Assembly: GCA_900767025.1 (NCBI GenBank)
Contig: CAAFXS010000014.1
Span: 1,238 to 65,237, forward strand
Direction: 5' to 3'
Source of the DNA: Clostridia bacterium
GTDB lineage: Bacteria; Bacillota; Clostridia; Oscillospirales; Acutalibacteraceae
DNA length: 64,000 nt
Positions 6,854 to 57,478 of this stretch are shown in pieces. A program made the position numbers and the translations under genes. The notes beneath the pieces are model-generated. The model searched no databases. It saw only the letters and a program-made list of their open reading frames with translations, and was not told the DNA's origin. The first letter of the stretch is position 1, and every line of letters starts with the position of its first letter.

Positions 6854-7666
6854 CTATATGATACCTGCGGCAAAATGATTAACTGCAATTACCCCTGCCA
6901 TAAACAGAGCTACGGCAATAAGGGAAACAAAATCCCTTGTATGCAGCTTCATAACCTTCATTTTTGTTCTGCCATCTCCGCCTCGGTAGCAACGGCACTC
7001 CATTGCGTAGGCAAGCTCGTTTGCTCTTCTAAACGATGACACGAAAAGCGGAATAAGCACCGGCACAAGCGCCTTTGCCCTGTGGACAAGTCCGCCTGAG
7101 TCCATATCGGCGCCCCTTGATTTCTGCGCCGCCATAATTTTTTCAATTTCCTCTACAAGAGTTGGGATAAACCGCAGTGCAATAGTCATTGTCATTGCAA
7201 TTGAATGAACATCTATTTTGATTAGTTTAAGAGGCTTTAACAATCTTTCAAGGGCATCGGTAAGCTCCGTAGGTGATGTGGTATAGGTAAGCAGAGAGCT
7301 GATTACCACAAGCGTTATTATCCTAATTGCCATAAACACTGCCGTTTCAATGCCCGAGGCAGTTATTTTAAGCCTGCCAAGCTGAACAAGGGGCTCGCCC
7401 TTGCCGTAAAACAGATTAAGCACCGCAGTTATTGCTATGATAACCGCAAGTGGTTTAATGCTTTTCAAAATAGTATTAGCCGGTATTTTTGAAAGCACCA
7501 CAAGCAAAATGCAGGCAACAATAACAAGCAACAGTGAAAACACATTTTTGCACAAAAAGATTGAAACAATCAGAAAAAGAATAAGTATAATTTTCATCCT
7601 TGCATCAAGCTTATGCAGTAATGAATTACCCGGGAAATACTGGCCGATTGTGATATCCGAAATCAT
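6854..7666 (-). CDS. ecfT: Energy-coupling-factor transporter transmembrane component EcfT
   Basis: Multi-TM protein following two ABC ATPase genes. It overlaps ecfA2 by 4 nt. The gene order ecfA1-ecfA2-ecfT-truA is typical of Firmicutes. Confidence 0.85.
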   Translation of the reverse strand: MISDITIGQYFPGNSLLHKLDARMKIILILFLIVSIFLCKNVFSLLLVIVACILLVVLSKIPANTILKSIKPLAVIIAITAVLNLFYGKGEPLVQLGRLKITASGIETAVFMAIRIITLVVISSLLTYTTSPTELTDALERLLKPLKLIKIDVHSIAMTMTIALRFIPTLVEEIEKIMAAQKSRGADMDSGGLVHRAKALVPVLIPLFVSSFRRANELAYAMECRCYRGGDGRTKMKVMKLHTRDFVSLIAVALFMAGVIAVNHFAAGII

Positions 7667-22596: not shown

Positions 22597-22667
22597 ATTA
22601 TTCACTCTTCACTTTTCACTATTAACTAAAAAGATATACTACGATGCACTACGCATATGAAATAATC

Positions 22668-22736
22668 TTTGCGCAGTAAAAAAAGAAATGACACCGCAAG
22701 GGTGTCATTTCTTTTTGGCGCAGAAGGAGAGACTCG
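22668..22736. repeat. Distal copy of a 69-bp direct repeat (tRNA-Ser-GCT 3-prime end plus its terminator hairpin)
   Basis: TTTGCGCAG-TAAAAAAAGAAATGACACCGCAAGGGTGTCATTTCTTTTT-GGCGCAGAAGGAGAGACTCG. It is identical to 22832-22900, which overlaps the real tRNA 3-prime end. Confidence 0.8.
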
Positions 22737-22831
22737 CCCGGGTAAAGATAAATCTTTCCCCGGCACGCACGCAGACAACGAAACAGTCCACCGGACTGTT
22801 TCTTCGCTTCGCGATGTCCTGTTCGAGTCTC

Positions 22832-22900
22832 TTTGCGCAGTAAAAAAAGAAATGACACCGCAAGGGTGTCATTTCTTTTTGGCGCAGAAGGAGAGACTCG
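22832..22900. repeat. Proximal copy of the 69-bp direct repeat (contains the terminator hairpin at 22842-22880 and the tRNA-Ser-GCT 3-prime end)
   Basis: Identical to 22668-22736; period 164 bp. The hairpin GAAATGACACC-gcaag-GGTGTCATTTC with flanking A/T runs acts as a bidirectional terminator. Confidence 0.8.
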
Positions 22901-22970
22901 AACTCTCGCGCCGGTTGCCCGACCTACGCCCTTAGCAGGGGCGCCTCGTCACCAACTTGAGTACTTCTGC
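22880..22970 (-). tRNA. tRNA-Ser (anticodon GCT), class II with encoded CCA
   Basis: Reverse complement reads GCAGAAG-TA-...-CGCCC-cTGCTaa-GGGCG-long variable arm-GAGAG-TTCGAGT-CTCTC-CTTCTGC-G-CCA. Confidence 0.85.
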
Positions 22971-23096
22971 AAGCTGACGGGTTTTACCTGTCAAGTATTT
23001 TGCACTTTCCGTGCGTGATTTACTTTATCATAACTTTTAAAAAAAGTCAAGAGAGAAATATAAATTATTTAAACAAATTAGGATTTGCAGTGGTGT

Positions 23097-23175
23097 TATC
23101 GTAGTGGGCGGATATTATCCGCCCGAATTGGCGGGCGACTGATAGTCGCCCCTACGGTTGTTCATAACAACCATT
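23097..23175 (-). repeat. REP/MITE-like structured repeat, copy 1 (inverted relative to copies 2 and 3)
   Basis: Its reverse complement differs from 49122-49197 by only 1-2 substitutions. Nested hairpins: GGCGACtatcaGTCGCC and GGGCGGATaatATCCGCCC, closed by CGTAGGGG...CCCCTACG. A flanking GGTTGTT-cat-AACAACC hairpin is also present. Confidence 0.75.
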
Positions 23176-33358: not shown

Positions 33359-33487
33359 ATTTACATCCTTTCCTTATAACTGTCTTTGAAGAGCTGAGAC
33401 CCTCTTCATTTTCATATTATGAATTTAAACAGAATTGTGCAAGCTGAGGTACAGAGAAAGGGTCTTTATATATTGCCTGTATAGCCT

Positions 33488-33541
33488 AATTTATGCATAA
33501 ATTTATGTGTATATTTATTCAGTTTTATGTATATTTATAAC
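33488..33541 (+). promoter_or_regulatory. AT-rich tandem imperfect palindromes, candidate ArgR (ARG-box) operator of the arg operon
   Basis: TTTATGCATAAATTTATG ... TGTATATTTATTCAG ... TTTTATGTATATTTATAA: repeated TATG-n-ATAAAT-type half-sites immediately upstream of the -35 box. Confidence 0.35.
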
Positions 33542-33558
33542 TATTTTCTCAAATAGTA

Positions 33559-33586
33559 TTGACAATAATATTAGAATGTATATAAT
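33559..33586 (+). promoter_or_regulatory. Sigma-A promoter of argC
   Basis: TTGACA (33559-33564), 16 nt, TATAAT (33581-33586), 38 nt upstream of the argC ATG. Confidence 0.6.
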
Positions 33587-33624
33587 AGATAAGAAATTAG
33601 AAAGATTGCGGAGAATGTATAAAA

Positions 33625-57242: not shown

Positions 57243-57356
57243 ATCTAACAACTGCGGGGGCAGGACCGAGGGAAAGGCAGTAGCTACGAAACAGTCCACA
57301 GGACTGTTTCTCCCAAATTGCAAAGCAATTTGGAGCCTCCTGTCGCAGATTCGTGT
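57243..57356. repeat. Structured non-coding element in the 3-prime flank of tRNA-fMet
   Basis: A 14-nt direct repeat of the tRNA 3-prime end, TGCGGGGGCAGGAC (57243-57256; the tRNA copy is at 57408-57421). Hairpin GAAACAGTCC-aca-GGACTGTTTC (57278-57300). Hairpin CCAAATTGC-aaa-GCAATTTGG. A degenerate inverted copy of the tRNA variable-loop/T-arm, GTCGCAGaTTCGtGTCCTGC (57332-57351). Confidence 0.6.
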
Positions 57357-57370
57357 CCTGCAATTATATG

Positions 57371-57400
57371 AAAAAAAGCACACCGAATGGTGTGCTTTTC
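57371..57400 (-). terminator. Rho-independent terminator of tRNA-fMet (bidirectional)
   Basis: AAAAGCACACC-gaat-GGTGTGCTTTT. Confidence 0.75.
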
Positions 57401-57402
57401 AA

Positions 57403-57478
57403 TGGTTGCGGGGGCAGGACTCGAACCTGCGACCTCCGGGTTATGAGCCCGACGAGCTTCCAACTGCTCTACCCCGCG
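57403..57478 (-). tRNA. Initiator tRNA-fMet (anticodon CAT)
   Basis: Reverse complement reads CGCGGGG-TA-GAGC...-TCGGG-cTCATaa-CCCGG-AGGTC-GCAGG-TTCGAGT-CCTGC-CCCCGCA-A-CCA. It has the C1.A72 mismatch and three G-C pairs in the anticodon stem, both diagnostic of the bacterial initiator. Confidence 0.88.

Follow-up and report, generated by a model that had tools for sequence, protein, structure and literature searches.

Structured, gene-less mini-elements that carry copies of their target tRNA gene ends in Clostridia and other bacteria

Behind the tRNA-Ser(GCT) gene of a Clostridia bacterium (contig CAAFXS010000014.1), in a stretch of 64,000 nucleotides that was analysed as a whole and is called the window here, the 3′ end of the tRNA gene occurs twice around a short structured spacer. 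We estimate a probability of roughly two in three that the 164 nt between the starts of the two repeat copies are a gene-less, non-autonomous, trans-mobilised, site-specific integrative mini-element. Elements of the same architecture are found at many other genes; their arms match their own target, their scaffold has a covarying fold, and they integrate at the T-loop of tRNA genes, or at the equivalent point in protein genes, with replacement of the gene 3′ end. An earlier note on this DNA had correctly recognised the duplicated tRNA end as an attL/attR-like footprint and had offered three readings of the insert: a decayed integration scar, a tRNA-targeting miniature element or a small structured RNA. 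The second of these is borne out by a further copy at tRNA-Met, dozens of homologues at other tRNAs, an empty site in the closest relative and versions that carry cargo.

Two elements in the window

Using a repeat finder, we observe a direct repeat of 71 nt without any mismatch, its copies at 22666-22736 and 22830-22900 and their starts 164 nt apart; a repeat pattern this long gave 0 matches in 100 shuffles. The earlier note was right that the two copies are identical, but its lengths of 69 bp for the repeat and 95 bp for the insert do not hold: the repeat extends 2 bases further at the left, and the spacer is therefore 93 nt (22737-22829). Each copy consists of the last 21 nt of the tRNA (CGAGTCTCTCCTTCTGCGCCA), starting within the T-loop, followed by a terminator hairpin with a 16-bp stem and by 14 nt. 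The parts of the element are as follows.

22880-22970, minus strand: tRNA-Ser(GCT), the intact target gene (ARAGORN; 51.7 bits with the Rfam tRNA model in a local scan)
22830-22900, minus strand: A2, the proximal copy of the 71-nt repeat, made of Y (last 21 nt of the tRNA, from the T-loop), the terminator and 14 nt (x'); 100% identity between copies
22844-22880, minus strand: intrinsic terminator hairpin, 16-bp stem with T-runs on both sides (inverted repeat)
22821-22843, minus strand: X', a copy of the tRNA 3′ end, inverted and diverged (best 12 nt at 22821-22832)
22737-22829, minus strand: spacer B, 93 nt, the structured scaffold of sub-family iii (by its fold and its homologue in the relative L147)
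22780-22802: HP, the family-signature hairpin with a 10-bp stem, GAAACAGTCC-NNN-GGACTGTTTC (here with loop ACC)
22762-22772, minus strand: conserved linker GCGTGCGTGCC
22737-22763, minus strand: hairpin P4 (CCGGG..CCCGG)
22666-22736, minus strand: A1, the distal copy of the 71-nt repeat, made of the displaced tRNA 3′ end, the terminator and x'; the only copy in the empty-site relative L143

Read in the sense of the tRNA, the scaffold comprises the 5′ half of a stem P1, a small hairpin (22804-22814), HP, the 3′ half of P1 (22772-22779), the linker and P4; both insert hairpins described earlier, at 22737-22763 and 22780-22802, are thus present. The plus-strand T-arm-like copy that had been thought able to pair with the tRNA end, GTTCGAGTCTCT at 22821-22832, is complementary at 12/12 positions to the T-loop/T-stem at 22892-22903 of tRNA-Ser(GCT). 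These best 12 nt of X' cover -4 to +8 around the T-loop junction, which follows TTC, and such a copy is a systematic, target-matched trait of the whole family, not of the Ser locus alone. The insert of 93 nt is too short for a gene, in line with the absence of genes that had been noted, and the mechanical open reading frames (ORFs) overlapping the repeat region are of 60-88 aa. The terminator of the Ser element occupies the slot where other family members hold cargo genes (compare L006 and L042 below). ARAGORN finds no tRNA in 22666-22879, and a tRNA pseudogene or tandem tRNA duplication was rejected, only X' and Y being tRNA-derived and the scaffold being common to elements at unrelated genes. 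The whole-window Rfam scan at the gathering threshold skipped tRNA-Ser(GCT), which nevertheless scored well in the local scan; this is a filter effect to bear in mind when tRNAs are listed by Rfam.

Relatives, obtained via the neighbouring DUF6512 and ThrE proteins, reveal that the element is present in some genomes and absent from others. The closest, L143, is an NCBI Eubacterium sp. metagenome-assembled genome (MAG) whose DUF6512 neighbour is 98% identical to that of the window and whose flanks are near-identical in the alignment. Its sequence runs from the flank through GAAATAA to a boundary, then through TCTTTGCGCAG, the terminator and TGGCGCAGAAGGAGAGACTCG to a second boundary and AACTCTCGCG; the 71-mer thus occurs exactly once, and the spacer is missing. 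The window equals L143 plus exactly 164 nt, a precise presence/absence difference between related genomes and the very pattern named in advance as the mark of an insertion. In a more distant relative, L147 (DUF6512 neighbour 84% identical to that of the window), the spacer is also found behind this tRNA. Several of its bases are substituted, and in the small hairpin the change from TCGCTTCGCGA to ATTGCTTCGCAAT is compensatory. L147 has another proximal terminator than the window, and its contig starts inside the distal Y. As an independent assembly with the spacer between tRNA 3′ ends on both sides, it demonstrates that the A-B-A arrangement is not an artefact of one assembly. Together, L143 and L147 therefore indicate that the element has long been resident in the clade and that close relatives are polymorphic for it. 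Contigs of the same strain either reproduce the window or break within the repeat and show nothing else, and a 41-mer from the repeat had 0 matches in a metagenome collection. Contigs that end inside or beside these tRNA genes or repeats include L119, L145, L147, L151-L155 and L160-L162; the elements probably often cause breaks in the assembly of gut MAGs.

A hairpin search of the window yields a second copy of HP, with 1 mismatch, at 57288-57310, 93 nt downstream of tRNA-Met. The whole element, at 57253-57406, belongs to another sub-family than the Ser element, and its layout is alike: in the sense of the tRNA, tRNA-Met is followed by a terminator, X', the CCAAAT..ATTTGG hairpin, HP and Y.

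57403-57478, minus strand: tRNA-Met(CAT), the target gene (ARAGORN)
57371-57399, minus strand: terminator hairpin between tRNA-Met and X' (from the sequence)
57342-57361, minus strand: X', a diverged T-arm copy, on the plus strand GTCGCAGATTCGTGTCCTGC; complementary to tRNA-Met from -11 to +9 around the junction after TTC
57270-57341, minus strand: scaffold of sub-family ii, with P1, hairpin P2 (57311-57334, CCAAAT..ATTTGG), HP (57288-57310) and GTAG
57253-57269, minus strand: Y, a distal partial copy of the tRNA-Met 3′ end (start-to-start 154 nt)

Within Y, TGCGGGGGCAGGAC at 57253-57266 is identical to 57407-57420, a 14-nt repeat of the tRNA-Met 3′ end. Judged by eye, the acceptor end of this tRNA has C1:A72, as in initiator tRNA. 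In relatives at this locus the sequence downstream of the tRNA is wholly different: every one of L150 and L156-L159 has a different terminator and different genes directly after the CCA of tRNA-Met, and L156 and L158 have a Phage_integrase and HTH_17 island there. The tRNA-Met site is a hot spot. The T-stem of tRNA-Met has a compensatory pair, CAGG/CCTG in the window vs TAGG/CCTA in relatives.

Some further features of the window were seen beside these loci. Between tRNA-Ser(GCT) and the DUF6512 gene, at 23095-23160, lie two hairpins like repetitive extragenic palindromes (REP) with GTAG/CTAC feet, CGTAGTGGGCGGATATTATCCGCCCGAA and GGCGGGCGACTGATAGTCGCCCCTACGG; L143 has different hairpins at this place. 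Similar GCGGGCGGAT..ATCCGCCCCTAC units occur near hairpin elements of L034, L046, L051, L094, L109 and L149, which suggests a REP/RAYT-type repeat population in these genomes. Genes are oriented mostly on the minus strand over 1-33 kb and on the plus strand over 33.6-52 kb, with the switch at about 33400-33600, and the cumulative GC skew of the window has its minimum at 32-34 kb. The orientation switch and the skew minimum near 33 kb look like an origin or an inversion boundary.

A family with target-matched arms and a covarying fold

A scan for the exact hairpin stem, whatever its loop, in one genome of each species gave at least 118 hairpin loci in public genomes. Most are in Clostridia MAGs (Eubacterium, Oscillospiraceae, Ruminococcaceae and CAG genomes), and some are in Burkholderiales and Alphaproteobacteria. 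Spacer homologues, whose absence elsewhere had been named as a sign against an insertion, are thus plentiful, both at tRNA-Met and across these loci. Among the matches listed, 32 hairpins lie downstream of a tRNA gene and 0 upstream, about 30 of them at 70-115 nt, and the loop orientation of the tRNA-linked hairpins is constant, GGN in the sense of the tRNA. The target tRNAs have at least 13 identities, including Ser, Pro, Thr, Val, Tyr, Leu, Lys, Glu, Arg, Gly, Met and Asn. Every tRNA-linked locus has the same order: the tRNA, a terminator, X' (the inverted T-arm copy of that tRNA), the scaffold with its hairpin, and Y. More than 60 distinct copies form one compact size class of about 110-170 nt with one covarying fold.

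Both arms follow the target. Y is a direct copy of the 3′ end of its own target from the T-loop, and its identity sets in within -2 to +2 nt of the T-loop junction in 24/30 elements; across the family the direct copy varies from 14 to >75 nt and corresponds to the gene 3′ end. Over 30 loci, the mean match score of X' is 11.6 to its own tRNA vs 6.5 to other tRNAs. X' straddles the junction in all cases, from -3 to +7/+13 in two sub-families and from -11 to +7 in a third. By the sequence around the hairpin, four sub-families can be distinguished; the Ser element is of sub-family iii (linker GYGTGCGTGCC) and the Met element of sub-family ii (CCAAAT..ATTTGGGA-hairpin-GTAG).

The same layout recurs where no tRNA is near: there, hairpins stand at the 3′ ends of protein genes. 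At the gyrB loci L067 and L095, the reading frame closes with NAKFVQNLDI and a stop codon; after it, gyrB codons from further upstream are repeated in inverted form (GACGGCGAGGTTCAA against TTGAACCTCGCCGT), and then comes the scaffold. Beyond the scaffold stands a second, diverged gyrB C-terminus in frame, the displaced native end, from which it follows that the proximal copy is element-borne and the distal copy original. Rubrerythrin-like genes (L003, L011, L049 and L088) have the same layout, sometimes in tandem, and here too the displaced native codons of the C-terminus have kept their frame. Since the module also occurs at protein genes, a tRNA-specific RNA function is ruled out.

The elements also occur in arrays and with cargo. 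Two to three units stand in a row in L011, L021, L041, L049, L086, L088 and L090, and triplets with a 159-nt period are found in IMG/VR contigs. In L006, a first unit is followed by a 306-aa ORF and a second [X'-scaffold-Y] unit. L042 has a 5.5-kb block of three ORFs, one of them for a Schlafen/AlbA_2-HATPase_c_4 protein, between Y and a further Y-terminator-X' unit. From these cargo forms, the general element can be written as [Y - cargo - X' - scaffold], the window copies having a terminator alone in the cargo slot. The unit after the L042 cargo (6940-7137) has X' (GGTGGGATTT), a short hairpin and Y and is without the GAAACAGTCC hairpin; the design of inverted copy, hairpin and direct copy is therefore wider than the hairpin-defined family.

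By prediction, the Ser element is much more stably folded than shuffled sequence: its sense strand gives z = -4.5 as RNA and -5.9 as DNA, and the whole 341-nt Ser region has a fold z of -9. In both window elements the predicted fold is closed by pairing of X' with the start of Y as a stem; HP lies within it, together with one or two hairpins that vary (z from -4 to -6, with RNA or DNA parameters). Among 24 distinct sequences of sub-family ii, the three-way junction of P1, P2 and the hairpin has 89% of cells paired and 10 pairs with double changes; 0/500 column shuffles were as good, and slid controls were much lower. In this sub-family the helix extends outward, the 3′ part of X' pairing with an X-like stretch just before Y, and the crossover point therefore lies within a long intrastrand duplex that copies the target site. 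Over 64 distinct elements, the sense strand folds at -47.3 vs -44.6 kcal/mol for the antisense strand and is better in 44/64 (Wilcoxon p about 5e-5).

Several side observations concern the hairpin and its surroundings. Sub-family ii also has a longer variant, which carries a further conserved domain on its 5′ side (GAGTGAATT-hairpin-AAGAGACACGAG) and stands directly after the stop codons of protein genes (L005, L012, L017, L034, L039, L046, L050, L051, L057, L061, L079, L080, L083, L094 and L149); paired GAG/GAG stretches in its P1 might form tandem G-A pairs like those of a kink-turn. The commonest Pfam match near hairpins is to HI0933-like flavoprotein genes (5 members). The same 23-nt hairpin is also found inside several mutually unrelated intergenic repeat families that have no X'/Y layout (L025, L032, L078 and L111; L072, L108 and L116; L019, L035 and L087; L009, L013, L081 and L089; L036, L091, L093, L096 and L106). 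These hairpin-only families occur in Clostridia, Adlercreutzia, Streptococcus and Proteobacteria, and the hairpin behaves like a reusable module. In a group of IMG/VR contigs (L123, L124-L127, L131, L132, L134, L136, L137 and L140), the units of 159-nt period stand at a partial tRNA-Pro end and adjoin other, possibly prophage, sequence.

Origin of the elements and comparison with known systems

We found no enzyme that travels with the elements. Among 389 ORFs of at least 150 aa within 3 kb of hairpins at genome loci, no recombinase or transposase Pfam family matched twice in any batch. No recombinase adjoins the window copies, whose neighbours are housekeeping genes, and the cargo-bearing L006 and L042 encode no integrase. 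With no recombinase nearby, the elements are therefore non-autonomous. An autonomous element with the scaffold was seen neither among the 118 listed genome loci nor in 21 IMG/VR contigs or the phage and plasmid collections. The IMG/VR hairpin matches are host flanks of prophages at tRNA-Pro, not elements with scaffold and integrase, and the plasmids of PLSDB gave no hairpin match. The single match in the phage collection is an unverified, unannotated 5.4-kb faecal scaffold; with its REP-like repeats and an adjacent ORF that, by eye, may be YebC-like, it looks bacterial, and an origin from a single-stranded DNA phage was rejected for it. Rfam 15 at the gathering threshold, run on the window and 19 loci, returned only tRNAs and a glycine riboswitch, and a permissive local Rfam scan returned only chance-level matches for the element. 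One of these aligns HP (22780-22802) to positions 39-61 of the model of the Brucella small RNA CI153 (14.5 bits, E = 0.35), which, though at chance level, fits the occurrence of the hairpin in Alphaproteobacteria. A retron, a diversity-generating retroelement and a group II intron were rejected (no reverse transcriptase, no matching motifs), as were a T-box or tRNA-mimic function (same module at protein genes) and a dif/Xer site (no dif-like core).

Four other explanations can be set against a mobile mini-element. A direct repeat of a tRNA 3′ end that starts at the T-loop is the classic footprint of a tyrosine integrase, and an integrase island or prophage may have lost its interior as a decayed scar or remnant of the type of cis-mobilisable elements (CIMEs), leaving attL, attR and about 93 nt of attP-arm DNA in which the hairpin would be an arm-type, integration host factor (IHF) or excisionase (Xis) binding region. 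Integrase islands do use the same tRNAs in relatives (Phage_integrase beside tRNA-Met in L156 and L158), and prophage ends adjoin mini-elements at tRNA-Pro in IMG/VR contigs. However, independent deletions would leave varied remnants rather than the >60 distinct copies of one size and one covarying fold, neither an integrase nor a piece of one recurs within 3 kb of the hairpins or with the cargo members, no autonomous parent with the scaffold came to light in the viral, phage or plasmid collections, and classical attP sites have no use for an inverted, target-matched copy such as X'. What the earlier note took for a possible scar is a conserved covarying module with no integrase remnant beside any copy, and we consider decay of a larger island unlikely. 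A small structured RNA gene or 3′-flank RNA element, whose read-through product would pair with the tRNA 3′ end or which would act as a processing or stability signal, with its spread secondary, would account for the conserved, covarying fold, for the greater average stability of the sense strand with its G-U pairs and for an X' that is antisense to the upstream transcript. TATAAT-like boxes also precede X' in several sub-family ii members, including the Met element (CATATAAT, about 57362-57369; by eye). Yet the module has a strong terminator immediately upstream, and a promoter scan of both window loci predicted no sense-strand promoter between terminator and X', a result that speaks more for a role at the DNA level than for an RNA gene. 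The RNA reading of the earlier note thus keeps its conserved structure and its somewhat better folding of the sense strand and lacks a convincing promoter. The module also stands behind unrelated protein genes with replaced C-terminal codons, a DNA-level event, shows presence/absence polymorphism, tandem arrays and cargo forms, and has no Rfam match; an RNA function as its primary role is, in our judgement, quite unlikely.

Explanations that involve no element at all fare worse. With the terminator at its centre, the region forms a long, imperfect palindrome, and the repeat reaches 50 nt past the tRNA, as might be expected of a local origin by tandem duplication or by replication switching templates at the terminator palindrome. 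But A-B-A is not a simple tandem duplication, homologues of B at many other loci and genomes already contradict a local origin, and B is missing from the empty-site relative and was therefore not copied from adjacent DNA; such an event is very improbable. That the repeat was mis-joined or duplicated in assembly is hardly credible: contigs do break in or near it, L119 ends in an A-B-A-B loop, and L145 and L147 start inside the tRNA or Y, but the independent assembly L147 has B between Y copies and the same layout recurs in dozens of unrelated assemblies.

Several points nevertheless weigh against the mini-element reading. The empty site of L143 comes from a single MAG contig, and an A-B-A loop is something that assembly can in principle pass over. 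The L143 copy retains x', the first bases of the inverted copy, and so seems to be a site that was once occupied, not a naive one; homologous deletion between the 71-nt repeats would yield the same sequence as site-specific excision. For the Met element no clean empty allele is available for comparison because the relatives differ completely downstream of the tRNA. The strand preference of the fold is modest, with the Met element folding better on its antisense strand, and by GC skew the folded strand has no significant replication-strand bias (25/42 loci). The hairpin is invariant because the scan required the exact stem, and a search for hairpin variants with compensatory changes gave only two single-mismatch variants. 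In the IMG/VR tRNA-Pro units, the boundary falls in the terminator loop (..GAATGTCCTGCTTCC) and not in the tRNA, with no distal tRNA copy after it, at odds with a simple T-loop crossover. The enzyme may be a tyrosine recombinase, an HUH nuclease or of other chemistry, and none was identified. Lastly, in the open-access literature, searched by sequence string and by concept, we found no description of such an element family, which is widespread and apparently undescribed.

The elements can be compared with five known kinds of system. Elements that target tRNA genes with tyrosine integrases, among them a T-loop sublocation class, were reportedly set out by Williams in 2002 (NAR). tRNA islands and tycheposons resemble the present family in inserting into the 3′ part of the tRNA, in supplying a replacement end that leaves the displaced partial tRNA as a direct repeat, in forming tandem arrays by successive insertions and in often having defence-like cargo. 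They differ in encoding an integrase, whereas the elements here have no gene or cargo only, and the conserved part here is a roughly 100-nt covarying fold with a target-matched inverted copy, foreign to classical attP. Measured by what defines integrative elements at tRNA genes, the family has tRNA 3′-end repeats with an intact tRNA and a fixed T-loop sublocation and lacks an integrase of its own. In the tycheposon paper (bioRxiv 10.1101/2020.12.28.424599), tycheposons are described as integrase-carrying, and a term search of that text gives no 'hairpin'. The absence of recombination genes between attL and attR is shared with CIMEs, which are mobilised in trans by a cognate integrase. CIMEs are known from the families of integrative and conjugative or mobilisable elements of streptococci, as deletion derivatives that share the att sites of one identifiable conjugative element. 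Here, in contrast, one scaffold has many targets, and no cognate autonomous element was found in the collections searched.

In integron cassettes with their attC sites, in clusters of attC sites lacking integron-integrases (CALINs) and in the folded single-stranded attP of CTX phage, it is the structure rather than the sequence of the site that is conserved. Like attC cassettes, the elements are gene-less or single-gene units with an imperfect palindrome and no recombinase in cis, arrayed at one platform, and the crossover would lie within an intrastrand duplex, here the pairing of X' with Y around the junction, as seen in predicted folds only. Unlike attC, they have no GTTRRRY or R-L boxes, their junctions being GTTC|GAAT and the like with C at the fourth position; no IntI stands beside the arrays (no Phage_integrase match recurs near them); and the platform is the 3′ end of a tRNA or protein gene, rebuilt each time, with arms that copy the target and a sequence-invariant hairpin. 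IS200/IS605 elements are small, hairpin-rich and act single-stranded, their cleavage and target sites being read by pairing with an internal guide next to the hairpin. These elements, the MITE-like PATEs and REP/RAYT are said to have been described by Barabas in 2008, Guynet in 2009 and Ton-Hoang in 2012. Hairpins, guide-like pairing and non-autonomous derivatives are common to both sides, the junction here follows (G)TTC where IS200/IS605 derivatives insert 3′ of a 4-5-nt motif, and REP-like GTAG hairpins are plentiful in these same genomes. The guides of IS200/IS605 have 4 nt with non-canonical pairs, however, whereas those here have 12-20 nt of Watson-Crick pairing; IS200/IS605 have no duplication or replacement gene end and the duplication here is long; and no TnpA, RAYT or Y1 transposase is adjacent. 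A MITE (miniature inverted-repeat transposable element) was also rejected: X' and the start of Y do form an inverted repeat, but the duplication is variable (14 to >75 nt) and equals the gene 3′ end, and no parent insertion sequence was found. In IS110/IS1111, whose bridge (seek) RNAs were reportedly described in 2024 by Durrant, by Hiraizumi and by Siddiquee, specificity likewise resides in nucleic acid, one segment addressing the left half and another the right half, each on a different strand. The present elements, in contrast, have no DEDD recombinase, no two-loop RNA architecture and no Rfam match; in them X' pairs with Y, so that a guide would be sequestered; and their direct copy is 14-75 nt of a real gene end, not a short guide.

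A possible mechanism and its meaning

If the 164-nt unit is an integrative mini-element, its circular form would read [Y - terminator - X' - scaffold], with Y as the replacement copy of the target 3′ end and X' as an inverted copy of the target site across the crossover point. Insertion into the T-loop of tRNA-Ser(GCT) would have rebuilt an intact tRNA with a terminator supplied by the element; the original 3′ end is pushed downstream by integration and hence yields the direct repeat. That the identity spans 71 nt and so extends beyond the tRNA is probably the outcome of re-insertion into a site that already had an element-derived terminator and an x' remnant, or of deletion to such a site. 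Mobilisation would be in trans, by an enzyme encoded elsewhere that may recognise the hairpin or the scaffold and junction. The attachment site may be used as a folded single strand, in which pairing of X' with the start of Y (in sub-family ii also with the X-like stretch) would restore, on either side of the crossover point, a double-stranded copy of the target site; the choice of target would then lie for the most part in complementarity between nucleic acids. X' could also be a splint that aligns the left half of the target with the Y of the element. Such a single-strand attachment site would be analogous to integron attC, the attP of CTX phage and the guide pairing of IS608. A junction after (G)TTC in the hairpin loop is suggestive of an HUH-type nuclease and proves nothing.

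We tentatively go one step further, at well below even odds, and suggest that the elements may be a new class of self-addressed integrative cassettes, in which the target is set by complementarity within the element and no dedicated integrase is needed. The X' splint would pair with the left half of the target and with the replacement end of the element, and a widely conserved enzyme, encoded by the host or at a distance, would read the hairpin or three-way junction on the folded single strand. For an element to be aimed anew, at the T-loop of any tRNA or at codons of gyrB or rubrerythrin, a new X' and Y would then suffice, and the window copies would be the minimal form with a terminator as sole cargo.

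tRNA genes are the classic landing pads of islands, and in the accepted picture the site is read by an element-encoded integrase protein. Here, one structured module is found in >60 distinct copies at >13 tRNA identities and at protein-gene ends, from Clostridia to Burkholderiales, with no recombinase nearby. The family belongs with site-specific integration into tRNA genes, and there is a real chance that its mechanism is new in kind. Even read conservatively, it accounts for a class of short duplicated tRNA ends that island finders pass over, for the breaks that gut MAG assemblies show at tRNA genes and for the hypervariable terminators found behind tRNAs. If the mechanism proposed here is true, these elements would be a natural, compact and re-addressable integration system in which site choice is encoded in base pairs, and they would offer cargo such as defence genes a route into tRNA hot spots without an integrase of its own.

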